This document shows, piece by piece, positions 10,777-36,174 of a stretch of 64,000 bases of DNA. The first letter of the stretch is position 1. Each line of letters starts with the position of its first letter. The translations under genes and the position numbers were made by a program. The notes under the pieces were generated by a model. The model was not told the DNA's origin. It did not search any database and saw only the letters and a program-made list of their open reading frames with translations. Source of the DNA: Deltaproteobacteria bacterium (GTDB lineage Bacteria > Desulfobacterota > Desulfomonilia > UBA1062); the NCBI GenBank assembly GCA_029547045.1, contig JAKPQL010000076.1, positions 1,442-65,441 of the forward strand, given 5' to 3'.

Positions 10777-11914
10777 TCGGGGTATGTCTCTCCATCAGCT
10801 CCATGAACTCCCTGAAGAGATATCCGGCATCCCTGGGGCCCGGGGCGGCCTCGGGGTGGTACTGAACACTGAAGGCCTTCAGGTCCGGCGCCCTGAATCC
10901 CTCCAGGGTGCCGTCGTTCAGGTTGATGTGGGTCACCTGTGTGTCGCGGGGAAGCGTCTCCCTGAGCACCACGAACCCGTGGTTCTGAGAGGAGATCTCC
11001 ACGCGGCCCGTGATCAGGTTCTTTACGGGCTGGTTTATCCCATGGTGGCCGAACTTGAGCTTGGCGGTCCTGGCGCCCAGTGCCTGGCCCAGGATCTGGT
11101 GTCCGAGGCAGATCCCGAAGACGGGCAGCCTGCCCAGGAGTTCCCTCACCGTGTCCACCAGGCAGGTGAGCGGCGCCGGGTCCCCGGGACCGTTGGAGAG
11201 CAGCAGGCCGTCCGGCTCAAAGGCCAGCACGTCGTGGGGTCCTGTCGCTGCGGGGACCACCACGACCTCGCACCCCTGGGCCTCGAGCATGCGGAGGATG
11301 TTGAGCTTGACACCGCAGTCCATGACCACCACCCGGGGTCTGTCCTTCTTCTCAGGCATTGCGTCAAGGGGCATCCTGGCGTTGCCCTTCCAGATGCAGG
11401 GCGCATCGCAGGTGACGCCCTGCACGATGTCCCTGCCGACGAGCCCCGGATAGGCCCGGACAGCATCCAGGAGGCCCCTGATGTCCCCAGTGTCCGTGGA
11501 GACGACACCCCGCATGGCGCCCATGGTGCGGATGCGCCGGGTGAGCGCCCTGGTGTCGACGCCCTCGATGCCGATGCGTCCGTTCTCCTGAAGGTACGCT
11601 GCCAGGCTCTTCCTGGACCGGTGGTTGCTTGGGAACGGCTGGTATTCACGTACCACGAGGCACTCCAGGTGGATGCCAGCCGACTCAACGTCCTCGTCGT
11701 TGATGCCGTAGTTCCCGATGAGGGGATACGTCATGACCAGGATCTGTTCCCTGTAGGAAGGGTCCGTGAGGCACTCCTGGTACCCGGTCATGCCCGTGTT
11801 GAACACGACCTCGCCGAAGCGGGAGCCCTCTCCGGCAAAGACCCGCCCCCGGTACACGGTGCCGTCTTCGAGCACCAGAACGGCGGGTCCTGTGGAGTTG
11901 CCAGTCAATCCCAT
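10766..11914 (-). CDS. carA: carbamoyl-phosphate synthase small (glutaminase) subunit
   Basis: 382 aa. Contains VFNTGMTGYQE and the catalytic region VFGICLGHQIL (class I amidotransferase). Confidence 0.93.
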   Translation of the reverse strand: MGLTGNSTGPAVLVLEDGTVYRGRVFAGEGSRFGEVVFNTGMTGYQECLTDPSYREQILVMTYPLIGNYGINDEDVESAGIHLECLVVREYQPFPSNHRSRKSLAAYLQENGRIGIEGVDTRALTRRIRTMGAMRGVVSTDTGDIRGLLDAVRAYPGLVGRDIVQGVTCDAPCIWKGNARMPLDAMPEKKDRPRVVVMDCGVKLNILRMLEAQGCEVVVVPAATGPHDVLAFEPDGLLLSNGPGDPAPLTCLVDTVRELLGRLPVFGICLGHQILGQALGARTAKLKFGHHGINQPVKNLITGRVEISSQNHGFVVLRETLPRDTQVTHINLNDGTLEGFRAPDLKAFSVQYHPEAAPGPRDAGYLFREFMELMERHTPNGA

Positions 11915-11942
11915 AGCGCCTCGGAAGGTTTCGTATGCCCGT

Positions 11943-11977
11943 CAGGCAGCCCGGTCCATCGAGGGCCGGGCTGCCTG
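11943..11977 (-). other. perfect 12-bp GC-rich stem-loop between glnA and carA (no U-tract)
   Basis: CAGGCAGCCCGG-N11-CCGGGCTGCCTG read directly. No T-run follows on either strand, so it is not a classical intrinsic terminator. Confidence 0.5.
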
Positions 11978-11989
11978 GTCTGCCATGAT

Positions 11990-13321
11990 CTATAGTACGG
12001 CAAGGTAGGTGTCAATCTCGTACTTGCTGACATGGATGCGGAAGTTGTCCCACTCCTTCTTCTTGTTCTCGATGAACTTCTCGAAGATGTGGTCGCCCAG
12101 GGCCTCGCGGACCAGAGAACTCCTGGAGACCTCCTGGATGGCCTCGAAGAGGTTGCCGGGCAGCGAGGTGATGCCGGCCTCCTCCCGCGCGTGCTCGTCC
12201 ATCTCGAAGATGTCCTGCTCCACGGGTTCAGCCAGGGGGTACTTCCTGGTGATGCCCTCGAGGCCGGCAGCGATCTGGACCGCAAAGGCCAGGTACGGGT
12301 TGCATGCAGGGTCCGGGGCCCTGAACTCGATGCGGGTGGCGTTGGCCTTGCCCGGCTTGTACATGGGCACGCGCACCATGGCAGAGCGGTTCCTGCGGGC
12401 CCAGGATATGTAGACCGGCGCCTCGTAGCCGGGCACGAGCCGCTTGTAGGAGTTCACCCACTGGTTCGTCACGGCCACGATCTCGCGGGCGTGCTTGAGG
12501 ATGCCGGCGATGTAGCTCTTGCCGACCTTGGAGAGGTGGTACTTGTCCTTGGCGTCGAAGAACGCGTTCTCGTCCCCCTTGAAGAGCGACTGGTGCACGT
12601 GCATGCCGCTGCCGTTCCCCCCGAAGATGGGCTTGGGCATGAAGGTGGCGTAAACGCCCTTCTGGCGGGCGATCTCCTTCACCGCGGTGCGGTAGGTCAT
12701 GACGATGTCCGCCATCCTGAGTGCCTCGGCGTACCTCAGATCGATCTCGTGCTGGGAAGGCGCCACCTCGTGGTGGCTGTACTCCACCCGGATGCCCATG
12801 TTCTGCAGGGCGAAGATGGTCTCGCGCCGGAGGTCCGTGCCAAGGTCTATGGGCAACCCGTCGAAGTAGCCGCCCCGGTCTATGATCTCCGGGCACGTGC
12901 TGTTGGCGAAGTAGAAGTACTCGAGCTCGGGTCCGAGGTATGCGGTGTAGCCCAGCTTGGCGGCCTTCCTGAGCACGCGCTTCAGGGCGTAGCGGGGGTC
13001 ACCGTCGTACGGCGTGCCGTCCGGGTTTACAATGTCGCAGATCATGCGTGCCACCGGCTTCTCCGCGGGTCTCCAGGGGAGCATCTGGAAGGTGGTGAGG
13101 TCGGGTTTGGCGATCATGTCGCTCTCGTGGATGCGGGCGAACCCCTCGATGGAGGAACCGTCGAACCCCATTCCCTCCTCGATGCCTTCGTCGAGCTCGG
13201 AAGGGGTGATCTGGAAGCTCTTCAGCCTCCCGATGACATCCGTGAACCAGAACTGGATGAAGCTTATGTTGTACTCCTTCACCGCCTTCAGTACATCCGC
13301 TTTCGTCTTGCAGTTGAACAT
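11990..13321 (-). CDS. glnA: glutamine synthetase type I (short, GSI-alpha-like)
   Basis: 443 aa. N-terminus ...ISFIQFWFTDVIGRLKSF, plus MPKPIFGGNGSGMHVHQS and NRSAMVRVP motifs. Confidence 0.93.
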   Translation of the reverse strand: MFNCKTKADVLKAVKEYNISFIQFWFTDVIGRLKSFQITPSELDEGIEEGMGFDGSSIEGFARIHESDMIAKPDLTTFQMLPWRPAEKPVARMICDIVNPDGTPYDGDPRYALKRVLRKAAKLGYTAYLGPELEYFYFANSTCPEIIDRGGYFDGLPIDLGTDLRRETIFALQNMGIRVEYSHHEVAPSQHEIDLRYAEALRMADIVMTYRTAVKEIARQKGVYATFMPKPIFGGNGSGMHVHQSLFKGDENAFFDAKDKYHLSKVGKSYIAGILKHAREIVAVTNQWVNSYKRLVPGYEAPVYISWARRNRSAMVRVPMYKPGKANATRIEFRAPDPACNPYLAFAVQIAAGLEGITRKYPLAEPVEQDIFEMDEHAREEAGITSLPGNLFEAIQEVSRSSLVREALGDHIFEKFIENKKKEWDNFRIHVSKYEIDTYLAVL

Positions 13322-20466: not shown

Positions 20467-20482
20467 TGGCATTCACATTGCT
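20467..20482 (+). promoter_or_regulatory. sigma-54 (-24/-12) promoter of amtB-glnK(-glnD)
   Basis: TGGCATTCACATTGCT matches TGGCAC-N5-TTGCW in spacing and in both the GG and GC elements. It lies 35 nt upstream of ATG 20517. Confidence 0.7.
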
Positions 20483-22212: not shown

Positions 22213-24669
22213 ATGGACGGAAGATTACTCACCCGGCGACTCACCGAGAAAACCGATTCCCTGGTGAAGGATCTCACCATGGGTCTTTCCCATCATGGCA
22301 ACCCTCCATGGTGCATGGTCGCCGTGGGAGGGTACGGCCGGATGGAGCTCTGCCCCTACTCCGACATAGACCTCCTGCTCCTGGTCGATGGAAAGGCCCG
22401 GCAGGAAGACATCGAGGCAACCCTGCAGAAACTCCTGTACCCCCTCTGGGACCGGGGGTTCACGGTGGGATACAGCGTGCGCACCGTGAAACAGTCCCTC
22501 AGGGACACCAGAAACGACTTCTTCTTCAGAACCTCCCTCCTCGATGCACGGTATCTGTGCGGGAAACGGGAGCTCTTCGATGAGCTGATGCGGGCCTGTG
22601 AGGGGAACAGGGCGCTCAGGGACACGAGGAGGTTCTTCCTCGACCTCGAGGCACACATCGAAAAGCGACACCTGCGCTTCGGCGACGCATCGTACACCCT
22701 GGAGCCGGACATCAAGGAAGGAATGGGCAGTCTCAGGGACTACCACTGCCTCCTGTGGGTTACGAGGGTCGCTTCCCTTGACCGGGGGGTCCAGGTACTG
22801 TATCTCGCACGGGTGGACCACGACGAGTTGGAGGATGCAGCAGCGAACCTCCTGTACATCCGGTATGCCCTCCATGAACTCGCCGGGAGAAAGGTCGACC
22901 GTCTTTCCTTCGAATACCAGCAATCCCTTGCAGAACGGCTGGGATTCAAGGGCAACGGAAACGAGACAGCCTCAGAGCTGCTCATGCGGAGCTTCCACTG
23001 CTCCGCCCTTGCCATCAAGTCCATCACCGGTTCGTTCCGCGCCCAGCTCGGGGTGGAGTACAAGACTCGCTGGAGGACAAAGCCACGTCCCATGGGGAAA
23101 GACTTCCTCGTGTCTGCGAACCTCATCTCGTTTTCCCATCCGGATGAGGTCACCCGCAGGCCCGGCCTCGTCATGGACGCCTTCGGACTCGTGGCAGACC
23201 ACGGGTTGTCCCTGTCATACCATGCACGGAATATCGTCAGGAGATCCCTCGAAACCCTCGAGCCCCTGCGCCAGGATAATGGTGCAAAGCAGAAATTCAT
23301 CAGGATACTCAGGGGCAGGCAGTGTCTGGCTGCGCTCACCACCATGCTTGAGACTGGGATTCTCGAGCGGTTTCTGCCCGAGTTCGCACCACTGAAAGGC
23401 AGGACACAGGTCGATGTGTACCACACCTTCACCGCGGACCTGCACAGCATCCGCACGGTCCATGAGTTGAGGATCCTGGAAGAAGAGGAGTCCGACGTAT
23501 TCGGCCTCATCGAGGACAAGGATACCCTGTACCTCGCCGCCCTCCTCCACGACATCGGCAAGGGTTATGGCAGACCCCACGCCGTCATCGGAGCTTCCAT
23601 GGTGCACGACATCGCCGGGTGGCTGGGTTTTCCCGGAAAGTCGGCGGATCTCGCCGCGTTCCTGGTGCACCACCACCTCCTTCTGCCCGACATCGCCTAC
23701 CGGAGGGACCTGTCCGAGGAGAAGGTCTCCCTGGAGTGTGCCCGCATTGCCAGGGACAGACAGACGTTAGCCATGCTCTACCTTCTCAGCATCGCCGATT
23801 CGAGGGCCACCGGCCCACGGGCATGGGACGACTGGAAGGCAAGTCTCCTGCAGGAGCTCTTCCAGAAAGCCATGAACAGCCTCCAGCGCGGCGTGCTCCG
23901 TGACCCCCAGACCATGATCGTCCTGAATGCACGCTGGAGCGAGCTCATTGGAGACATACCTTCGGAGTCCCGCACGTACGGGGGCGGAAGGCTCTGGGTC
24001 CTTCCCCAGGCATACGTCATCCACACGGAGGCCGACCACATCAGGCGCCACCTCTCCCTGAGCTCGTCACTCAAGAGCCGGGACGACATCGCCCTGGACA
24101 TCATGAACAATGGAGGCCATACGAAGGTCACCATGATAACAAGAGACCGGCCAGGTCTCTTTGCCCTGCTCACCGGAATCCTCACGGTCAACCACCTCGA
24201 TATCCTGTCGTCACAGGTATTCACCTGGCTCGACGGGGTTGCCGTGGACACCTTTCATGTCCTCAGGCCGTGGGAGGATTTTTCAGGATGGGAAAAGATC
24301 AGAAGCCAGTTCAAAGCCGCGTGTTCGGGCGCCATGGACCTTGGAGCAGTGGTCGCAGAAACAAGGCCATTGAGGACAGGTCCCGCCATACGGTCGACAT
24401 CGCGGCCCTCGGTGTCCCTGGACAATGTCTTTTCAGACTTCTTCACCCTCATCGAGGTGCATGCGCCAAGAAGCTCAGGACTCCTCTATCGCATCGCCCG
24501 GTGCATTTCCACCCTGAAGCTGGATATCCACAGGGCCTTCCTTTCGCACACCGGCGACCCGTGCACGGATGTGTTCTACGTGGTGGACGAGTTCGGTGAA
24601 AAGATCGTGGAACCGGCTCGGATGCATACGGTGGAGAATGAGCTCATCAGGGCGATCGGGCAGTCCTGA
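22213..24669 (+). CDS. glnD: [protein-PII] uridylyltransferase/uridylyl-removing enzyme
   Basis: 818 aa. Nucleotidyltransferase core GGYGRMELCPYSDIDLLLL, HD domain AALLHDIGKG, and C-terminal ACT-like repeats. Confidence 0.9.
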   Translation: MDGRLLTRRLTEKTDSLVKDLTMGLSHHGNPPWCMVAVGGYGRMELCPYSDIDLLLLVDGKARQEDIEATLQKLLYPLWDRGFTVGYSVRTVKQSLRDTRNDFFFRTSLLDARYLCGKRELFDELMRACEGNRALRDTRRFFLDLEAHIEKRHLRFGDASYTLEPDIKEGMGSLRDYHCLLWVTRVASLDRGVQVLYLARVDHDELEDAAANLLYIRYALHELAGRKVDRLSFEYQQSLAERLGFKGNGNETASELLMRSFHCSALAIKSITGSFRAQLGVEYKTRWRTKPRPMGKDFLVSANLISFSHPDEVTRRPGLVMDAFGLVADHGLSLSYHARNIVRRSLETLEPLRQDNGAKQKFIRILRGRQCLAALTTMLETGILERFLPEFAPLKGRTQVDVYHTFTADLHSIRTVHELRILEEEESDVFGLIEDKDTLYLAALLHDIGKGYGRPHAVIGASMVHDIAGWLGFPGKSADLAAFLVHHHLLLPDIAYRRDLSEEKVSLECARIARDRQTLAMLYLLSIADSRATGPRAWDDWKASLLQELFQKAMNSLQRGVLRDPQTMIVLNARWSELIGDIPSESRTYGGGRLWVLPQAYVIHTEADHIRRHLSLSSSLKSRDDIALDIMNNGGHTKVTMITRDRPGLFALLTGILTVNHLDILSSQVFTWLDGVAVDTFHVLRPWEDFSGWEKIRSQFKAACSGAMDLGAVVAETRPLRTGPAIRSTSRPSVSLDNVFSDFFTLIEVHAPRSSGLLYRIARCISTLKLDIHRAFLSHTGDPCTDVFYVVDEFGEKIVEPARMHTVENELIRAIGQS

Positions 24670-24778: not shown

Positions 24779-26947
24779 TCAACTGATGAACAGCATCTCC
24801 CAGTATTTGGGCATGGGCCACAGCTCGTTGTCCACGTAGTGCTCCAGCGTGTCCACCGTTTCCCTGACCGCGAGCATGGTCCCTTTGATCTCGTCGCAGA
24901 AGAAGGCGGCCTTCTGTTCCTCTGATTCTATGGACTTGGACTTTGCGAGCCTTTCCGTGAGCTCGCCGGTGAGCTTCTGCGCCTCGCCGATGAGGGAGCT
25001 CACCGTCTTCAGCAGGTCCTTCTGGTGTTTCAGGGCCTTGGTGTCGCCGAGGACATCGACAGCAGACCTGATGGAGGAACCCAGTGCTCCCTGATACTGC
25101 ACTGCGGCCGGTATGACCTGGTTCTGCACCATGTTGGCAAGGGTCGCAGCCTCGATGTCGATCTCCTTGACGTACCGCTCCAGGCGGATATGGTAGCGCG
25201 ACTTCAGCTCCGTGGCGGTGAGCACGCCGTACTTCTCGAAGAGCTTGAGTGCCTTTTCGGCCTTCAGGTCCTTCAGTGCCTCTGCGCTGGTCTTCTTGTT
25301 GGGCAACCCCCGCCTGGCCGCCTCCTTCTCCCATTCCCGGGTGTAGTTGTCTCCCATGAACAGGATGGCCTTGTTGGCCTTCACCTCTTCCCTGATCACA
25401 TCCAGGGCGGCCTGGTTCACGTTTCCTCCCCTGGACTTGATCTTCGCCGCGATGAGGTCGATGCTCTCGGCCACGATGGTGTTGAGGACGGTGGCCGGGA
25501 AGGAGATGGACTGGGAGGATCCCACGGCCCGGAACTCGAACTTGTTGCCCGTGAAGGCGAAGGGCGAGGTCCTGTTGCGGTCGGTGCTGTCCTTGCTGAG
25601 CACAGGGAGCTTTGACACGCCGAGGTCGATGATGGCTTCGTCGGTCGCCTTGGTGATCTTCCCCTTCTCGATGTCGTCCAGGATCCGGGTGAGCTGTTCC
25701 CCCAGAAAGATCGAGATGATGGCAGGAGGTGCCTCGTTGGCCCCGAGCCGGTGGTCGTTGCCCGCTGATGCCACGGATGCCCTGAGCAGGTCCGCGTGCA
25801 GGTGTACGGCCTTGATGGTGGCCATGAGGAACACCAGGAACTGGATGTTGTCGTGGGGGGTCCTGCCCGGGTTGAGCATGTTGTTGCCTTTGTCGTCCGA
25901 GAGCGACCAGTTCAGGTGCTTGCCCGAGCCGTTGATGCCCGCAAAGGGCTTCTCGTGGAGCAGCAGCCTGAGCTTGTGCAGCGGCGCGATGCGCTTCATG
26001 GTTTCCATGACGAGCTGGTTGTGGTCGGCGGCCAGGTTGGCCTCCTCGAAGATGGGGGCTATCTCGAACTGGCTTGGCGCCACCTCGTTGTGCCTGGTCT
26101 TTGCCGGAATGCCGAGCTTGTAGAGCTCTTCCTCGACGTCGTGCATGAAGGACAGGATCCTCTCCTTGATGCTGCCGAAGTACTGGTCCTCCAGCTGCTG
26201 GCCTTTGGGCGGTGTGGCGCCGAGAAGGCTTCTGCCGGACATGACAAGGTCCTGCCTCCGGTAGTAGTAGTCCTGGTCGATGAGGAAGTACTCCTGTTCC
26301 GGTCCTAGTGTCGCAAAGACCTTCTTCGCCTCGTTGTTGCCAAGCAGGCGCAGCAGGCCCAGCGCGCTCCTGTTGATGGCCTCGATGGAACGCAGCAGCG
26401 GGGTCTTCTTGTCCAGTGCCTCGCCGGTGTACGATATGAATATGGTCGGGATGCACAATGTCGTCCCGAGGCCGCTCTTGATGATGAAGGCCGGACTGGT
26501 GGGGTCCCATGCCGTGTAGCCCCTGGCCTCGAAGGTGGACCTGAGACCGCCGCTGGGGAAGCTGGACGCATCGGGCTCGCCCTGGATGAGCTGCTTGCCG
26601 GAGAAGCGCTCGATGATGTCGCCCTCGTCGGTGAACTCGATGAACGAGTCGTGCTTTTCCGCCGTGGCACCGGTCATGGGCTGGAACCAGTGGCAGTAGT
26701 GTGTGGCGCCCTTCTCGATGGCCCATTCCTTGATGGCGTGGGCGACGGCGTTGGCGGTGTCCAGGTCAAGCTTCCGCCCTTCGTGGATGATCTCTATGAC
26801 GCGCCTGTACACATCCTTGGGGAGCCTTTCCATCATGACCTTGACGCCGAAGGTGTCTTCTCCGAAGTACCTCGACACCTGTACATCCTTCTCCTTCTCG
26901 ACGGCATAGCTCCTCTCGTATGCAGCGACTGTGTTGCCGACCTTCAT
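24779..26947 (-). CDS. glnN: glutamine synthetase type III
   Basis: GSIII-type N-terminus (YFGEDTFG..., THYCHWFQPMTG) and a length of about 722 aa from ATG 26947, which has RBS GGAGGA. The track's upstream extension to 27040 lacks an RBS. Confidence 0.9.
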   Translation of the reverse strand: MKVGNTVAAYERSYAVEKEKDVQVSRYFGEDTFGVKVMMERLPKDVYRRVIEIIHEGRKLDLDTANAVAHAIKEWAIEKGATHYCHWFQPMTGATAEKHDSFIEFTDEGDIIERFSGKQLIQGEPDASSFPSGGLRSTFEARGYTAWDPTSPAFIIKSGLGTTLCIPTIFISYTGEALDKKTPLLRSIEAINRSALGLLRLLGNNEAKKVFATLGPEQEYFLIDQDYYYRRQDLVMSGRSLLGATPPKGQQLEDQYFGSIKERILSFMHDVEEELYKLGIPAKTRHNEVAPSQFEIAPIFEEANLAADHNQLVMETMKRIAPLHKLRLLLHEKPFAGINGSGKHLNWSLSDDKGNNMLNPGRTPHDNIQFLVFLMATIKAVHLHADLLRASVASAGNDHRLGANEAPPAIISIFLGEQLTRILDDIEKGKITKATDEAIIDLGVSKLPVLSKDSTDRNRTSPFAFTGNKFEFRAVGSSQSISFPATVLNTIVAESIDLIAAKIKSRGGNVNQAALDVIREEVKANKAILFMGDNYTREWEKEAARRGLPNKKTSAEALKDLKAEKALKLFEKYGVLTATELKSRYHIRLERYVKEIDIEAATLANMVQNQVIPAAVQYQGALGSSIRSAVDVLGDTKALKHQKDLLKTVSSLIGEAQKLTGELTERLAKSKSIESEEQKAAFFCDEIKGTMLAVRETVDTLEHYVDNELWPMPKYWEMLFIS

Positions 26948-27107
26948 GCGTTCCTCCGTATGCTGGTATGGTTGTGCCCCATGGGTGCCGGATCCCACCC
27001 GTGGCTGACTCACCCGTAACCCTCTTAGGTCAGTCAGCATGTCTGTTCAATACAAAATCATGGAAACGGGTGCGGGGCATCCTTTCGTCTCCTTGTGCCC
27101 CCCTACA

Positions 27108-27122
27108 GCAAGGACGGTGCCA
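27108..27122 (-). promoter_or_regulatory. sigma-54 (-24/-12) promoter of glnN
   Basis: The minus strand reads TGGCACCGTCCTTGC, a perfect TGGCAC-N5-TTGC. It lies about 160 nt upstream of ATG 26947. Confidence 0.7.
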
Positions 27123-27358
27123 GGGACCGGCAAGGACAGTTATGCGATATCATTAAATAATTGCCGCACCGCACCCTTTGACCTGTAACAATAGCGGGTC
27201 ATTCCTGTCAGGTTGGGTCATTTTTGTTTCAAAAGCCTGCCACATAGAGACCCTGCGGGGAAGCACAGGGGAGACGGTGTGCATACCGTGCATTCATCCA
27301 TGCCCATTTCTACAGATTCATCTTGAAGTACGGGAGTCATTTCTTTTAAGTAGTGTGC

Positions 27359-29980
27359 ATGAAAAGAGCATTCAGCCCATTCAGCACCGGCATTTCCGGC
27401 CTCGATGAGACCCTGAGCGGCCTCAGGCCTGGAGATAATGTCGTATTCCAGGTGGACAGCATCGAGGACTATGCGGCCTTCGTGCACCCCTTCTGCATCC
27501 GGGCGAACAAGGAGAAGCGGGTACTCGTCTACTTCCGCTTCGCCAGGCACGAGCCGCTTCTGCCCGAAGGCGTCGAGGCCCAGGTCTTTCACCTGCACCC
27601 TGAGCAGGGGTTCTCCAACTTCGTGTCCGACATCTTCGATGTCATCGAACAGGTCGGCCTGGAGGCCTACTACGTCTTCGACTGCCTCTCCGAGCTGGCC
27701 GTGGACTGGTACTCCGACCGCATGCTGGGCAACTTCTTCATGCTCACCTGCCCCTACCTCTACATCTACGAGACCATCGCCTACTTTGCCCTTTTGAGGA
27801 ACCGCAACACCGCCCAGGCCGTGGACGCGATTCACACCACCGCACAGGTGGTGATGGATGTCTACCGCAACCGGGACACCCTGTACCTGCAGCCCCTGAA
27901 GGTCTACAAGCGCAACTCGGAGACCATGTATATGCTGCACGCCTGGGAGGGTGACCGCTTCGTGCCGGTGAGGAAGAGCGTGGTGAATGCCGAGATCCTC
28001 TCCAGCTCGCCCCAGCGCTGGCTCGACTTCACCTTCCAGCGCGACGTGTGGTCGCGCATGTTCATGCTGGCCCAGGACCTCCTGCACAGGGCCCGCCGGG
28101 GCAAGCCCAGGCCGCGGGCGGAGAAATACGTGCTGCGGCGCCTGCTGCGCATGATGGTCACCCGCGACGAGCGCCTCCTTGAGCTGGCGGAGAGGTGTCT
28201 CGAGCTTTCCGACCTCATCGAGATCGGCAAGCGCATGATCGGCACGGGCATGATCGGCGGCAAATCCGCCGGCATGGTGATCTCCAGGGCCGTCCTGAGC
28301 AAGGCCTCTCCACACTGGAAGGATATCCTGGAATCCCATGACTCGTTCTACGTGGGCTCCCACGTCTTCTACACCTATCTCATCCGGAACGGCTGCTGGG
28401 CAGCCTACCGCGAGACGAGGAAGCCCGGCATGAACGGCGACAGCCTGCGCGAGGCACGCCACCGCATGCTGAACGGCACCTTCCCGGATGACATCCTGGA
28501 GCAGTTCAAGGAGATGCTCAACTATTTCGGCCAGACGCCCATCATCGTGCGCTCCTCCAGCCTGCTCGAGGACGCCTACGGCAACGCCTTCTCCGGCAAG
28601 TACAACAGCTACTTCCTGGCCAACCAGGGCACGCCCGAGGAACGACTGGAGGTCTTCGTCGAGGCGGTACGCAAGGTGTACACGAGCACCATGAACAAGG
28701 ACGCCCTCATGTACCGCGAGCATTGGAACCTGCTGGACAAGGAAGAGCAGATGGCACTGCTGGTGCAGCGAGTCTCCGGAGAGGACTTCGGCACCTTCTA
28801 CTATCCCCATGTGGCTGGCGTGGGGTTTTCCTTCAACCCCTTTGCGTGGAGCGCGGATATCGATCCCAAGAGCGGCTTCCTCCGCATGGTCTTCGGACTG
28901 GGCACCCGCGCCGTTGACCGCACCGATGACGACTACACCCGCATCATCGCGCTGAACGCGCCGCAGAAACGGCCCGAGTCTTCGTACTCGGAGATGCGCA
29001 GGCACACCCAGCGCCGCATCGACGTGCTGGACCTGAAGCAGAACCAGCACATCGCGCAGCCCTTCGAGGACGTGGTGTTGAATTCGGACGGGTTGCCCAT
29101 CGACCTTTTCGCCTCGCAGGACACCGAGGCACGGCAGCGGGCCGCTGAAATGGGACACGAGGACGCCTTCACCTACTACCTGTCCTTTGATGAACTGCTG
29201 GGCAGGACCACCTTCGTGAGCACCATGCGGTCCATGCTGGAAACCCTGGACAGGGCCTACGAATACCCGGTGGACATCGAATTCACCGCCAACTTCATCG
29301 ACGGGAGCAATTACCGCATCAACCTCCTCCAGTGCCGCCCCTTCCAGGTCAAGAGTCCCACCGGAAAGGCCGAGGTGCCCGAGGGCATCGCAGAGGAGCA
29401 CGTGGTGCTCTACACCGAGAGCACGGTGGTGGGCAACAGCCGCGTGCTTCCCGTGGACCGCATCATCTACGTGGTGCCCGAGGCCTACAAGGACCTCAGC
29501 CAGCAGGAGCGCTACACCCTTGCGCGCATGGTGGGCAGGATCGCCCATGCGGGCGATCCGCGCAAGCCCATGTCCATCATGATCATCGGTCCGGGACGAT
29601 GGGGCACCACCACTCCCTCCCTGGGGGTGCCGGTGAGCTTTGCGGACATCAACACGGTGTCGGTCCTGTGCGAGCTCGGCGTCATGCACGAGGGACTGGT
29701 GCCCGAGGTGTCCCTGGGAACCCACTTCTTCAACGACCTGGTGGAGATGGACATGCTCTACCTCGCCGTGCACCCGGAACGGGACCGCCATGTGTACAAC
29801 CGGGCCTTTCTGAACAGCGCCCCCAACCGGCTGTCCGAGGTGGTGCCACAGGCCGCGTCCTGGGAACATGCCATCCGCGTCATCGATTCCGGCGTGAACG
29901 AGAAGGGACTCAGGGTCTTCCTCAATGCGGACGCCATCCAGCAGAGGGCCATGTGCTACCTGGCCGAGGAAGAGAAGTGA
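27359..29980 (+). CDS. multidomain protein: P-loop-less KaiC/RecA-like domain + PPDK-N type ATP-grasp (PEP/pyruvate-binding) domain + C-terminal domain lacking the phosphohistidine
   Basis: About 873 aa. The N-terminus TGISGLDETLSGLRPGDNVVFQVDS resembles KaiC/RadA, but GxxxxGKT is absent. The PPDK_N motifs GGKSAGM, IIVRSSSLLEDAYGNAFSGKY and ALLVQRV are present. The tail GPGRWGTTTPSLGVPV resembles the swivel domain without His. ATG 27359 versus GTG 27353 is uncertain. Confidence 0.8.
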   Translation: MKRAFSPFSTGISGLDETLSGLRPGDNVVFQVDSIEDYAAFVHPFCIRANKEKRVLVYFRFARHEPLLPEGVEAQVFHLHPEQGFSNFVSDIFDVIEQVGLEAYYVFDCLSELAVDWYSDRMLGNFFMLTCPYLYIYETIAYFALLRNRNTAQAVDAIHTTAQVVMDVYRNRDTLYLQPLKVYKRNSETMYMLHAWEGDRFVPVRKSVVNAEILSSSPQRWLDFTFQRDVWSRMFMLAQDLLHRARRGKPRPRAEKYVLRRLLRMMVTRDERLLELAERCLELSDLIEIGKRMIGTGMIGGKSAGMVISRAVLSKASPHWKDILESHDSFYVGSHVFYTYLIRNGCWAAYRETRKPGMNGDSLREARHRMLNGTFPDDILEQFKEMLNYFGQTPIIVRSSSLLEDAYGNAFSGKYNSYFLANQGTPEERLEVFVEAVRKVYTSTMNKDALMYREHWNLLDKEEQMALLVQRVSGEDFGTFYYPHVAGVGFSFNPFAWSADIDPKSGFLRMVFGLGTRAVDRTDDDYTRIIALNAPQKRPESSYSEMRRHTQRRIDVLDLKQNQHIAQPFEDVVLNSDGLPIDLFASQDTEARQRAAEMGHEDAFTYYLSFDELLGRTTFVSTMRSMLETLDRAYEYPVDIEFTANFIDGSNYRINLLQCRPFQVKSPTGKAEVPEGIAEEHVVLYTESTVVGNSRVLPVDRIIYVVPEAYKDLSQQERYTLARMVGRIAHAGDPRKPMSIMIIGPGRWGTTTPSLGVPVSFADINTVSVLCELGVMHEGLVPEVSLGTHFFNDLVEMDMLYLAVHPERDRHVYNRAFLNSAPNRLSEVVPQAASWEHAIRVIDSGVNEKGLRVFLNADAIQQRAMCYLAEEEK

Positions 29981-30023
29981 TTCGCCTCACCATTGCGTGA
30001 TGCCACGGGGGAGGTCAGCCAGC

Positions 30024-31211
30024 ATGCAGGCCATGAATCCCGACAGGATCGCCATCATCGGGCCCGGGCGGCTGGGGACCGCCTTTGCCTACAAGTGGGG
30101 GCGTGACGGCAGGCAGATCACCATCTACTACCACGACGAGGCCCTGTGCCATGCCATCAACACCACCCGCCTGAACCCGAAGCACCTCACCGAAGACCTG
30201 GGAAGGATCTTCGGCGGCATGGACAAAGTGCCGAGGCTTTCCCCTCGGGTGCGGGCGACCAACGATCTGGACGAGATCGTCTCCGAACATGACTTCATCA
30301 TGCTCGCCATCAACATGAAGGGGCTTCCGGACTTCCTGGGCCACCTGAAGCCCCGCATCGCGAGGAAGAAACGCAGGACCTGTATCATCTCCCCCATCAA
30401 GAGCCTCGCCTCGGCGGGGCGGAAGAACGAGCTCATCACGCCGTCGCAGATGATCAACTCCCACTTCTTCGACCTCCAGCGATGCTACGACATCGTCTGC
30501 ATCGGCGGGCCCTTCTTCGACGTGGACCTTGCTGCGGGCCACCCGGTCTGCGTCGCCGTGGCCGGAAACGCTCAGGTCGCAGCAACGGTGAGGCGGGAGT
30601 TCTTCGCGCGGAACAGGGACGAGCTGAGCTCCTACTACAACTGCGACACCGTTGGCGTGGAGGCCTGCGGCGCACTCAAGAACATCGTGGCGAACATCAA
30701 GGGAATCGCGGACTGCTGCGGCCTGGGGAACTCGTTCCCCGGGACCATCTTCGCCCGGGCCGGCGTGGAGATGCGGGCCATATCGAAGATCCTCGGCGGC
30801 CACTTCCTCACCTTTCTCGGCCAGGCGGGCGTGGGAGACATGTACGTGACGCTGTCCTCGAACGCCAGCAAGAACTACCGGTACGGGAGGGATTTCTACG
30901 AGCACTACACCGGGAACACCATCGAGACCCACCGCAGGGTCGTAGCGGGCATCGACGGCACGCCCGAGGGTCCCGGAACCCTGAAGAACGTGTACCGGTA
31001 CCTGGAGGGCAAGAACATGTACAGCCCCATCTTCCGCAGCGCCTACAGGATATTCAACGAGGCCGGCACCAGGGAGGAGATCCGGGAGCAGATCATCCAT
31101 GCCTGCCAGTTCGACCGCAGGAGCAACGAGTACATCGGACCGTTCTCGGGCCTGGTCTACAACCTGTTTCCGCACTTCTGGTACCGGCGTCAGAAGGGGT
31201 GGCTGGGCTGA
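30024..31211 (+). CDS. divergent NAD(P)H-dependent glycerol-3-phosphate dehydrogenase (GpsA)-like oxidoreductase
   Basis: About 395 aa from ATG 30024 (RBS GGGGGAGG). Rossmann IAIIGPGRLGTAFA, plus GALKNIVANIKG and GQAGVGDMYVTLSS, which parallel the GpsA motifs. It has a longer C-terminal tail. Confidence 0.7.
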   Translation: MQAMNPDRIAIIGPGRLGTAFAYKWGRDGRQITIYYHDEALCHAINTTRLNPKHLTEDLGRIFGGMDKVPRLSPRVRATNDLDEIVSEHDFIMLAINMKGLPDFLGHLKPRIARKKRRTCIISPIKSLASAGRKNELITPSQMINSHFFDLQRCYDIVCIGGPFFDVDLAAGHPVCVAVAGNAQVAATVRREFFARNRDELSSYYNCDTVGVEACGALKNIVANIKGIADCCGLGNSFPGTIFARAGVEMRAISKILGGHFLTFLGQAGVGDMYVTLSSNASKNYRYGRDFYEHYTGNTIETHRRVVAGIDGTPEGPGTLKNVYRYLEGKNMYSPIFRSAYRIFNEAGTREEIREQIIHACQFDRRSNEYIGPFSGLVYNLFPHFWYRRQKGWLG

Positions 31212-31552: not shown

Positions 31553-32776
31553 CTAGAACAGGAAGATCGGGTACGTGTCCGGGTTCTTGCCGAAGCACGT
31601 GACGTCGTCGATCTTCTCGATCCTGGCGCCCTTGAGCAGTGCGTAGAGCGACCGCTCCACGCCGATGCCAGCGCCCATGGTCTCGGGGAAGTAGGGTCTG
31701 CCCTGCTCGTCCTTCATGTGCACCGCGGTGAGGAACGGCCCGTAGCCGTCCAGGCTGGCGATGTTCTCCAGCATGCCGCCCTCGAAGCGCGGGGCCTCGG
31801 GGAGAATCCTGTTGTCGATGAGGCGGTAGATGATGGGCTCGTAGAGCCATTCCCGGATGGCACCGGACAGGATCTCCAGGGCAGGGGTGAATTTAGCGGT
31901 CTGACGGATGATTGACTTGGCGCAGATGTCGTAGTTGTAGATCATGTCCGAGGTGAACGACGATATGGGGATCCTCGTGCCGTCGGGCTTCACGTAGGGA
32001 TAGATGAGGTCGTAGTTCTCCCGCATGAGGCCCGTGACCCAGAAGAACTGGCCCTTGACGTCCTCACCGGCCTTGGCGTCCAGGTCCACCTTGCCGTGCT
32101 TCCTCAGGGCCTCGTCGTGCCGAACCCTCGGGAAGGGCTGCTTCGGCACCTCCAGCGCCACGCCCAGATCCCTGAGGTTGTCTTCGTTCTTCTCCACGAT
32201 GGACGCCGTGGCCGCGATGATCATACGCTCGAAGAAGTCGATGATCTTCTCGTAGTCCTCCTTCAGTACTGCCTTCACCTTTTCGGGCTCTTTCAGGTAC
32301 TGCCCGTAGTCTATGCCGCGGTTCCTCCGGAGCTCCACGTCGATCTGGGAGAAGTCGATGAGGTACTTGCCCCGCTGCTTGCGCTGGGGGCTCTCGATCT
32401 CCAGGCGGATGTTGGGCGAGTCTATGAAGATGCCCTTGATCTTGGGGTTGAAGCAGGCCAGGAACTTCATATAGATCATGGAGTGGGTCGCCACGTAGGG
32501 CATGCCCTTGTAGTGGATGGTCGGCACGTGCTCCACGTCGTGGGCCAGGGGGTCGGTCACCGGGCTCATCTCCACGCGTTCCAGGTTCAGCAGGCCTTCA
32601 TTCACGAGGAAGTTGTTGATGGCGGTCACGAAGGTGGTGCGGATGCTCATGGCATTGTATATGTCGTCGTTCACCCACTTGTTCACATAGTTGTCGCGCA
32701 CGAACTCCTCGAAGGTGGAACCGGACTGACCGATGGTGGCCTGGAAATGGAACAGGTCTTCGCCGATGAAACCCAT
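31553..32776 (-). CDS. stand-alone class IIb aminoacyl-tRNA synthetase catalytic-core paralog (AsnA/archaeal asparagine synthetase A-like)
   Basis: 407 aa from ATG 32776 (RBS GAGGAGG). Motif-2-like SPNIRLE...KYLIDFSQIDVEL, EILSGAIRE, and motif 3 GAGIGVERSL. There is no anticodon-binding domain. Confidence 0.7.
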   Translation of the reverse strand: MGFIGEDLFHFQATIGQSGSTFEEFVRDNYVNKWVNDDIYNAMSIRTTFVTAINNFLVNEGLLNLERVEMSPVTDPLAHDVEHVPTIHYKGMPYVATHSMIYMKFLACFNPKIKGIFIDSPNIRLEIESPQRKQRGKYLIDFSQIDVELRRNRGIDYGQYLKEPEKVKAVLKEDYEKIIDFFERMIIAATASIVEKNEDNLRDLGVALEVPKQPFPRVRHDEALRKHGKVDLDAKAGEDVKGQFFWVTGLMRENYDLIYPYVKPDGTRIPISSFTSDMIYNYDICAKSIIRQTAKFTPALEILSGAIREWLYEPIIYRLIDNRILPEAPRFEGGMLENIASLDGYGPFLTAVHMKDEQGRPYFPETMGAGIGVERSLYALLKGARIEKIDDVTCFGKNPDTYPIFLF

Positions 32777-32892
32777 TGTGTTACCTCCTCGCGTATTGTT
32801 GCCCGTACAGGGCATTTCCGTGAATGTCCGATTATCAGCAAACCTTATGCCACGGAGGAGCCGTTGATTGCAAGGACGGGCACGCACCCGCT

Positions 32893-34290: not shown

Positions 34291-34451
34291 GCCCAGGTAC
34301 TGTGCAAGCCAGGGGCCAGTCCTGTTTCAGAACTGCGACCTCGTGGAGCCGCAGGGTTTCACGATGCATGGCCCATGGTACGTCCGGGTCGAGGGACATT
34401 TTCGTCCATTCATGCGCTTTTGGCTCAATATTGTTTCAACGAACACCTGCA

Positions 34452-36159: not shown

Positions 36160-36174
36160 GCAATTGCCCTGCCA
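36160..36174 (-). promoter_or_regulatory. sigma-54 (-24/-12) promoter of asnB-purF-(aaRS-like) operon
   Basis: The minus strand reads TGGCAGGGCAATTGC (TGGCA-N6-TTGC, correct spacing). It lies about 40 nt upstream of ATG 36119. Confidence 0.7.

Follow-up and report, generated by a model that had tools for sequence, protein, structure and literature searches.

The window analyzed here is a 64,000-nucleotide (nt) stretch of contig JAKPQL010000076.1 from a Deltaproteobacteria bacterium (GenBank assembly GCA_029547045.1), and it harbors at positions 27359-29980 of the plus strand an open reading frame (ORF) for an 873-amino-acid (aa) protein, given the working name T. T represents a widespread, uncharacterized variation on the dikinase ATP-grasp theme, and it has a strong tie to glutamate synthesis that had not been described before. 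It is built of three parts, namely, an N-terminal domain with a RecA/KaiC fold, a PPDK_N ATP-grasp, and a family-specific C-terminal domain of ~195 aa, and its genes recur in many phyla, in every orientation, beside genes that form glutamate or use glutamine (gdhA, gltB/gltD, nfnAB-like, glnN, amt-glnK, carA, purF, and nadE). With regard to function, T is tentatively proposed to be a phosphotransferase that is driven by ATP and serves the glutamate/glutamine node, probably by way of the invariant histidine H789, a proposal that we regard as possible though still short of probable. The ORF was found where a preliminary description, made from the DNA letters, had placed it, and the strings quoted there (TGISGLDETLSGLRPGDNVVFQVDS, GGKSAGM, IVRSSSLLEDAYGNAFSGKY, and GPGRWGTTTPSLGVPV) are all present in the translation. 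A GTG codon at 27353 is a possible alternative start according to the ORF list.

The AlphaFold2 model of T, computed with 120 homologues, showed a predicted local distance difference test score (pLDDT) of 86.6 and a predicted template modelling score (pTM) of 0.85. Foldseek comparison of the N-terminal 230-250 residues with the PDB revealed similarity to KaiC, PH0284, FlaH, and RecA with E values of 1e-9 to 1e-7, among them KaiC (7s65_B, E 6.5e-9), PH0284 (2dr3, E 4e-8, template modelling (TM) score normalised to the target 0.64), and FlaH (4yds, TM score to the target 0.69). The N-terminal 297 aa thus have their fold in common with KaiC, PH0284, and FlaH, and the domain opens with 'STGIxGLDxxLxG', which is typical of KaiC/RecA-superfamily ATPases. 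Unlike these ATPases, T contains no Walker A motif, as a regular-expression search for G....GK[ST] found none across the 873 aa, and no KaiC or ATPase domain of Pfam matched the N-terminus even at E 10. At the position of the P-loop in the model, strand 27-32 and helix 35-51 are joined by residues 33-34 only, and the sequence there reads QVDSIEDY. KaiC carries FxxEE at the catalytic-glutamate stretch after strand 2; the corresponding stretch of T, as far as can be judged by eye, would be the invariant YFRFA-x-H (aa 58-64). Owing to the missing Walker A motif and the absence of a Pfam KaiC/ATPase match at E 10, the domain is almost certainly neither an ATPase nor an autokinase, and it is probably a pseudo-ATPase with a scaffold or sensor role. 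A P-loop-less KaiC-like domain followed by a PPDK-N ATP-grasp, as given in the preliminary description, is therefore what the searches recovered.

PPDK_N, spanning aa 298-679, is the sole Pfam domain of T. The best structural match of T lies here, to rifampin phosphotransferase of Listeria (5hv1/5hv3, E 1e-12; 5hv3 E 1.2e-12), followed by the stand-alone ATP-grasp HpeI (9goj, E 6e-11). The ATP-site motifs GGK302, VR398SSS-LED-x5-F-x-GK, D639-I-E641, and LQ658-C-R660 align with those of phosphoenolpyruvate (PEP) synthase (PpsA), are common to rifampin phosphotransferase and pyruvate phosphate dikinase (PPDK), and presumably match the residues that bind nucleotide and Mg in PPDK. They were found to be invariant in 120-200 relatives and also in a second subfamily that is only 32-38% identical to T, and judged from these residues the ATP site looks catalytically competent. 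Among NCBIfam models, those of PEP synthase, rifamycin phosphotransferase, and PigC/RedH matched the ATP-grasp part only, with scores that did not exceed 50 bits where the cut-offs are 600-1350 (best PpsA equivalog 50 bits vs 883; rifamycin phosphotransferase 27.7 vs 999), and PRK05849, a model possibly related to L-glutamine kinase, matched over 65 residues only (E 0.0013). As in rifampin phosphotransferase, the domain after the ATP-grasp is C-terminal. Unlike rifampin phosphotransferase, PpsA, and PPDK, T has neither the phosphohistidine swivel domain PF00391 with the GGxT[SC]H histidine, nor the PEP/pyruvate TIM barrel, nor the rifampin-binding domain, so that no acceptor-binding domain of either kind was found, and it possesses the RecA/KaiC-like N-terminal domain in addition. 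The architecture is unusual, as had been suggested, and is not that of an ordinary PpsA, PPDK, or rifampin phosphotransferase.

The C-terminal domain had been described as a swivel-like tail lacking histidine and hence unable to operate by the phosphohistidine relay, and this portrayal did not survive closer analysis. No Pfam domain was found in it even at E 10, and a profile of the domain matched no dikinase among the PDB sequences. A separate model of aa 670-873 (pLDDT 89.6) had no structural neighbour in the PDB by Foldseek (best E 0.048, TM score <0.3), although the PDB is rich in swivel domains. Alignment by hhalign of 200 sequences of the domain with the phosphohistidine domains of Escherichia coli PpsA, PtsI, PtsP, FryA, and PtsA gave a probability of 0.3% and an E value of 0.2. 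With all four approaches negative, the tail is not detectably swivel-like; a PurE-like stretch (E 1.4) and weak flavodoxin-like Foldseek matches were at noise level.

The domain contains seven histidine residues. Of these, H789 is kept in at least 98% of the 200 relatives, and conservation reaches at least 90% for both H777 and H730. H789 lies in S-L-G-T-H-F-F-N-D-L-V-E, 40 residues past the GPGRWGT motif, which is itself devoid of histidine, is kept as GPGRWG[T/S] across both subfamilies, and is as invariant as the H789 loop. Residues 771-800 form the best conserved stretch of the domain and yet the least confident one in the model (pLDDT 60-71), with the lowest values, ~60, at residues 781-790; a stretch so well conserved and yet so poorly defined in the model may well be a functional loop that is mobile. 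In the model, helix 788-796 starts at T788-H789, placing H789 at its N-terminal end directly after the conserved loop, which is the setting expected of a phospho-carrier histidine. On the grounds of conservation and local structure, H789 is hence a candidate catalytic or phospho-carrier residue and the one residue that can be named for a covalent phospho- or pyrophospho-histidine intermediate of the dikinase kind, with AMP as product, and the earlier exclusion of a phosphohistidine relay would no longer apply.

Over its full length, T has matches in more than 7,900 clusters formed at 90% identity, with 55-82% identity overall and 55-60% across many phyla, and the profile of the C-terminal domain matches 1,866 clusters at 50% identity. 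In the genome collection, the family is present in Omnitrophota, Fibrobacterota/Chitinispirillaceae, Verrucomicrobiota, Planctomycetota, Lentisphaerae, and Kiritimatiellia, in Polyangiaceae, Syntrophaceae, Desulfobulbaceae, Chromatiaceae, and Ectothiorhodospiraceae, as well as in Spirochaetes, Bacteroidales, Anaerolineales, Bryobacterales, and the archaeal Methanomassiliicoccales. The relatives appear in databases as "PEP/pyruvate-binding domain-containing protein", 'pyruvate, water dikinase', or 'pyruvate, phosphate dikinase', and the name 'pyruvate, water dikinase' is wrong for them. The second subfamily, of ~780-800 aa, resembles T from aa 285 onward and retains GPGRWG[S/T] and GTHFFND, but its N-terminus is of another, non-KaiC kind; GTHFFND served as the search key for this set, which is therefore biased for it, whereas GPGRW, E772, and P782 are free of that bias. 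Its members adjoin a 417-aa glutamate dehydrogenase (GDH) of the ELFV type, and the two ORFs overlap in locus L093. The constant core of the family is the intact PPDK_N ATP-grasp with the ~195-aa C-terminal domain, preceded in the branch of T by the pseudo-KaiC domain.

Several further observations concern the variety of the family. The second subfamily was seen in L093 (663-4303) and also in L106, L121, L135, L136, L159, L172, L180, L183, L190, L200, and L203, its hosts being Syntrophobacteraceae, Thermoanaerobaculales, Holophagae, and Chloroflexi, and L159 holds two tandem copies. Long family members, among P0201 (1654 aa), P0269 (1077 aa), P0121, P0204, and P0231, include tandem duplications with two PPDK_N and two C-terminal domains. 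P0269 shows by eye a GAF-like N-terminal region, and in two cluster representatives, P0269 being one of them, a Pol-beta-type nucleotidyltransferase domain is putatively fused after the C-terminal domain. No Rosetta-stone fusion of T with GDH or another nitrogen enzyme was found, the longer members being accounted for by short tails, mis-called starts, duplications, and the nucleotidyltransferase domain.

To describe the genomic surroundings of T, all ORFs within 7 kb were clustered for 80 genome loci and the window, i.e., 81 loci, and the cluster representatives were checked against Pfam. In 60 of the 81 loci, an ammonium-assimilation gene lies within 7 kb of T; as the loci were picked by similarity, mostly from metagenome-assembled genomes, the counts do not stand for events that are independent in phylogeny. 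GDH occurs in 43 loci, a GltD-like protein in 24, and GltB in 18; GlnN, Amt-PII, NadE, CarA, PurF, and NrpR also recur. At a distance of 500 bp or less, GDH, GltB, or GltD was found in 44 loci, and GDH by itself in 29, of which 13 are divergent, 11 convergent, and 5 co-directional with T. The arrangement nadE-gltB-gltD-T-carA-(carB)-purF occurs in Omnitrophota and the order T-gltB-gltD in Chitinispirillaceae, Bacteroidales, and Verrucomicrobiota. An independently gene-called Omnitrophota contig (L210) carries nfnA-like, gltD-like, gdh, and T genes consecutively, beside amt-glnK-glnN; gdh with a LysR-family gene and T, and T with gdh and nrpR, are further recurring orders. The glnN gene is near T in L001, L014, L016, and L017 and further off in Omnitrophota loci. 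A second, independent sample of 91 relatives retrieved by motif contained GDH within an 8-kb stretch in 40 cases, and its loci from Verrucomicrobiae have T behind gdhA after a gap of ~35 nt. The association with nitrogen proposed in the preliminary description is therefore retained, and it is broader than the window shows.

Regulatory genes were also encountered in these surroundings. Bacterial NrpR homologues (PF01995 at E 1e-78 to 1e-80, with a helix-turn-helix domain) adjoin gdh and T in L002 (14365-15381) and L044 (6809-7813), and likewise in L003, L045, L053, L069, and L071; the methanogen-type NrpR operator GGAA-N6-TTCC did not occur above background near T or gdh in the NrpR-carrying loci. 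In L210, a GAF-GAF-ANTAR antiterminator-type regulator (10858-12093, minus strand) is convergent to T and lies directly downstream of the nfnA-like/gltD-like/gdh/T row. Clustering of ORFs of 40-160 aa revealed no conserved small carrier protein adjoining T, only shadows of gdh and gltB. A role of T in anti-phage defence was considered and rejected, as PADLOC gave no match.

According to the proposal of a phosphotransferase at the glutamate/glutamine node, ATP would be bound by the ATP-grasp as in PpsA, PPDK, and rifampin phosphotransferase, and the phosphoryl group would be passed to, or with the help of, H789 on the mobile C-terminal loop, such that the C-terminal domain would stand in for the canonical phosphohistidine swivel domain. 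Most likely, the phosphoryl group would end up on a small metabolite of ammonium assimilation (glutamine, glutamate, 2-oxoglutarate, or ammonia), and the reaction would feed or tune glutamate synthesis. A small-molecule acceptor is favoured because all characterized PPDK_N enzymes known to us, L-glutamine kinase included, act on small molecules or glucans. A shared metabolite is preferred to a single protein target since T joins GDH in some lineages and glutamate synthase (GOGAT) with amidotransferases, without GDH, in others. The pseudo-KaiC domain may serve as an oligomerisation or sensor module and not as a substrate site, because other domains replace it in sister subfamilies.

Characterized systems offer partial parallels to such a reaction. 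L-glutamine kinase is a member of the PPDK_N/ATP-grasp dikinase superfamily that keeps the canonical catalytic histidine domain, and it sets an example of a dikinase whose substrate is a metabolite of nitrogen assimilation. The enzyme (EC 2.7.3.13, Cj1418 of Campylobacter jejuni) catalyzes the ATP-dependent N-phosphorylation of the amide of glutamine (PMC6429109). It serves the synthesis of capsule O-methyl-phosphoramidate, whereas T is located in central nitrogen gene clusters. In split dikinases, the histidine carrier is a separate protein of the PEP-utilizers type. The stand-alone ATP-grasp subunit HpeI, which matches that of T, shows that the carrier domain with which an ATP-grasp works need not be covalently canonical or fused to it; unlike in the split dikinases, no PEP-utilizers-type partner is conserved beside T. 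EI-Ntr (PtsP), as established for the nitrogen branch of the phosphotransferase system (PTS-Ntr), belongs to the PEP-utilising family, catalyzes phosphotransfer, and is tied to nitrogen status via an N-terminal sensor domain. It is a functional analogy only, as EI-Ntr, unlike T, uses PEP and not ATP, has the canonical histidine domain, and has no ATP-grasp, and the swivel domain of E. coli PtsP was among those whose profile could not be aligned with T.

Several points weigh against the proposal. The role of H789 is drawn from conservation and local structure, and no mechanism can be borrowed from a relative because the C-terminal fold matches nothing. About one-quarter of the loci, including both Methanomassiliicoccales loci, have no nearby nitrogen gene, and the similarity-based choice of loci noted above lowers the weight of the counts. 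No sigma-54 site faces T in the window, though five neighbouring nitrogen genes own one. The swapped N-termini, the tandem duplications, and the two putative Pol-beta fusions look more like a regulator than a pathway enzyme. Literature searches by family names, neighbour genes, and organisms returned nothing on the family, and a paper on nitrogen in Prevotella makes no mention of it.

T could alternatively be a protein-directed regulator that uses ATP to phosphorylate or otherwise modify GDH, GOGAT, or a signalling protein, thereby switching glutamate synthesis in response to the nitrogen or energy state, with a logic like that of PknG-GarA or of the EI-Ntr relay; we consider this rather unlikely. 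It would fit with GDH as the commonest and closest neighbour, with the pairing of the two subfamilies with two GDH size classes, and with an N-terminal module that is exchanged between subfamilies, as sensor domains are. The Pol-beta nucleotidyltransferase fold, which two cluster representatives putatively have fused to the core (one of them with a GAF-like N-terminus by eye), is that of GlnD and GlnE. The existence of tandem-duplicated forms and the presence of LysR, NrpR, LuxR-type response-regulator, and GAF-ANTAR genes next to T in several loci point in the same direction. On the other hand, we know of no characterized PPDK_N enzyme that phosphorylates another protein, and no conserved small carrier protein accompanies T. 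The occurrence of T in gltBD-carA-purF operons without GDH is a better fit to a shared metabolite, and for a regulator, an identity of 55-60% between phyla over a length of 870 aa is high.

A non-catalytic sensor of ATP, ADP, or AMP, or a scaffold, which would hold the nucleotide in the ATP-grasp without phosphate transfer and assemble with nitrogen enzymes, appears improbable. The N-terminal domain as a pseudo-enzyme of a ring-forming family and the compact, not obviously swivelling model indicated by the pTM value are in agreement with it. Invariance of all catalytic motifs of the ATP-grasp and of the C-terminal histidine loop over large distances would, however, be unusual for a mere binder.

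The preliminary description had instead grouped T with a GpsA-like dehydrogenase in a candidate kinase or regulatory module tied to nitrogen or C3 metabolism, which as a model amounts to a conserved two-gene module with a C3 or glycerol-phosphate substrate and a histidine-free kinase mechanism. The neighbour is a 395-aa NAD(P)-dependent dehydrogenase with the N and C domains of NAD_Gly3P_dh (Pfam E 2.9e-14 and 4.2e-30), the GxGxxG and GALKN motifs, and 26% identity to E. coli GpsA (BLASTP, E 2e-25), the motifs IGPGRLG, GALKN, and SKNYRYG aligning with IGAGSYG, GAVKN, and SRNRRFG of the latter; it scored below the cut-off of all 14 NCBIfam GpsA models (best 160.6 bits vs 257). The gene is located downstream of T on the same strand, as had been stated, and the gap is 43 nt, in place of the 44 nt claimed. 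It is preceded by the Shine-Dalgarno sequence GGGGGAGG, no terminator-like site was found between the two genes, and they are probably co-transcribed in the window. The census showed the pair again at one of the 80 loci, L001, a 95%-identical sibling contig and thus not an independent case, whereas the GpsA-like gene is missing beside T from L002-L004 (78% identical) and from 76 other orthologous loci, i.e., from all of the remaining 79. Conversely, no T was found within 6 kb of GpsA-like relatives with 84% and 77% identity. The 84%-identical relative, in a delta-proteobacterial metagenome-assembled genome (L082, 2949-7188), is divergent from and 76 nt away from a 991-aa glycyl-radical enzyme resembling pyruvate formate-lyase, which hints at a role of the dehydrogenase separate from T. 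As the linkage is not conserved in orthologues, the pair falls and the idea of C3 metabolism falls with it; the invariant histidine in the tail is a further argument against the module, which we rate as very improbable, and the GpsA-like gene is a lineage-specific passenger outside the conserved unit. An ordinary PEP synthase or PPDK, as suggested by the database names of the relatives and the PPDK_N domain, is scarcely credible in view of the missing PEP-utilizers and PEP_utilizers_C domains, the PpsA equivalog score far under its cut-off, the RecA-like N-terminus, and the failed hhalign comparison with swivel domains.

In the window itself, the surroundings of T are a nitrogen island. The pair of T and the GpsA-like gene lies between glnN, which has an exact sigma-54 element, and the asnB operon, as the preliminary description had it; amt and glnB are also present upstream of T, and downstream of it the minus strand carries asnA-like, purF, and asnB genes. 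The exact -24/-12 element TGGCAC-N5-TTGC (TGGCACCGTCCTTGC) in the glnN-T intergenic region faces glnN and is also kept in L001, and the asnA-like, purF, and asnB sites each have one mismatch. Matches of this type number 9 in the window vs a chance expectation of 4.5. From its sequence, the amt/glnN/asnA-like/purF/asnB island looks like a single sigma-54/NtrC-type regulon in which T has no site of its own. The coordinates of these features are given in Table 1.

The 30 nt directly 5' of the T start (27329-27358; GTCATTTCTTTTAAGTAGTGTGC...) are identical in the window and L001, the glnN-T spacer being only ~79% identical overall. These 30 nt show no evident Shine-Dalgarno sequence and may represent a conserved leader or an element of translation control. 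The asnA-like gene (31553-32887, minus strand, 444 aa) ends the asnB-purF cluster and is akin to class II aminoacyl-tRNA synthetases and the archaeal-type asparagine synthetase A (tRNA-synt_2 E 3.7e-10; NF005054 121 bits vs a cut-off of 309). Its true start is probably further downstream because its sigma-54-like site falls inside the longest ORF.

Table 1. Coordinates, strand, and basis of assignment of T, its parts, and the neighbouring features in the window.
Feature	Position	Strand	Basis
T coding sequence, 873 aa	27359-29980	+	ORF list; stop codon 29978-29980
T N-terminal domain, aa 1-297, RecA/KaiC-like fold without Walker A	27359-28249	+	Foldseek, model, motif search
T PPDK_N ATP-grasp, aa 298-679	28250-29395	+	Pfam PF01326 E 5e-49; Foldseek; motif alignments
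T C-terminal alpha/beta domain, aa 680-873, family-specific	29396-29977	+	Own model, Pfam, Foldseek, hhalign
GPGRWGT motif, aa 744-750, Gly-rich loop after strand	29588-29608	+	Translation, conservation
Motif SLGTHFFNDLVE, aa 785-796, with invariant H789 (codon 29723-29725)	29711-29746	+	Translation, conservation, model
GpsA-like NAD(P)-dependent dehydrogenase, 395 aa	30024-31211	+	Pfam N and C domains
glnN, type III glutamine synthetase, divergent from T	24779-27040	-	Pfam GSIII_N, Gln-synt_C, Gln-synt_C-ter
glnD	22213-24669	-	Pfam/NCBIfam searches
Sigma-54 -24/-12 element, exact, facing glnN	27108-27122	-	Pattern search
Sigma-54-type element (exact or one mismatch), amt	20467-20481	+	
Sigma-54-type element (one mismatch), asnA-like	32838-32852	-	Pattern search
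Sigma-54-type element (one mismatch), purF	34304-34318	-	Pattern search
Sigma-54-type element (one mismatch), asnB	36160-36174	-	Pattern search

For the family as a whole, names such as 'pyruvate, water dikinase' mislead the reconstruction of metabolism from metagenomes, and T indicates that the module to which a dikinase ATP-grasp is coupled need not be the canonical phosphohistidine domain. The control or assistance of GDH and GOGAT is poorly known in the PVC (Planctomycetota-Verrucomicrobiota-Chlamydiota) group, Fibrobacterota, Omnitrophota, many Desulfobacterota, and other groups, many of which use type III glutamine synthetase; several of these lineages are not known to have GlnE/NtrBC-type circuitry of the enterobacterial kind. 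Present in thousands of genomes, with ~55% identity across phyla and in operons with gdhA, gltBD, and nfnAB-like genes, the T family is a candidate for a missing enzyme or regulator of the glutamate node. In a more specific form, which we regard as doubtful, the family would carry out a so far undescribed ATP-dependent reaction in the core of ammonium assimilation, i.e., the N-phosphorylation of glutamine or ammonia or the phosphorylation of glutamate or 2-oxoglutarate, via a new phospho-carrier or catalytic fold marked by GPGRWG[T/S] and G-T-H-F-F-N-D. If true, that step would be widespread, extending over Planctomycetota, Verrucomicrobiota, Omnitrophota, Fibrobacterota, Desulfobacterota, Spirochaetota, purple sulfur bacteria, and some archaea.

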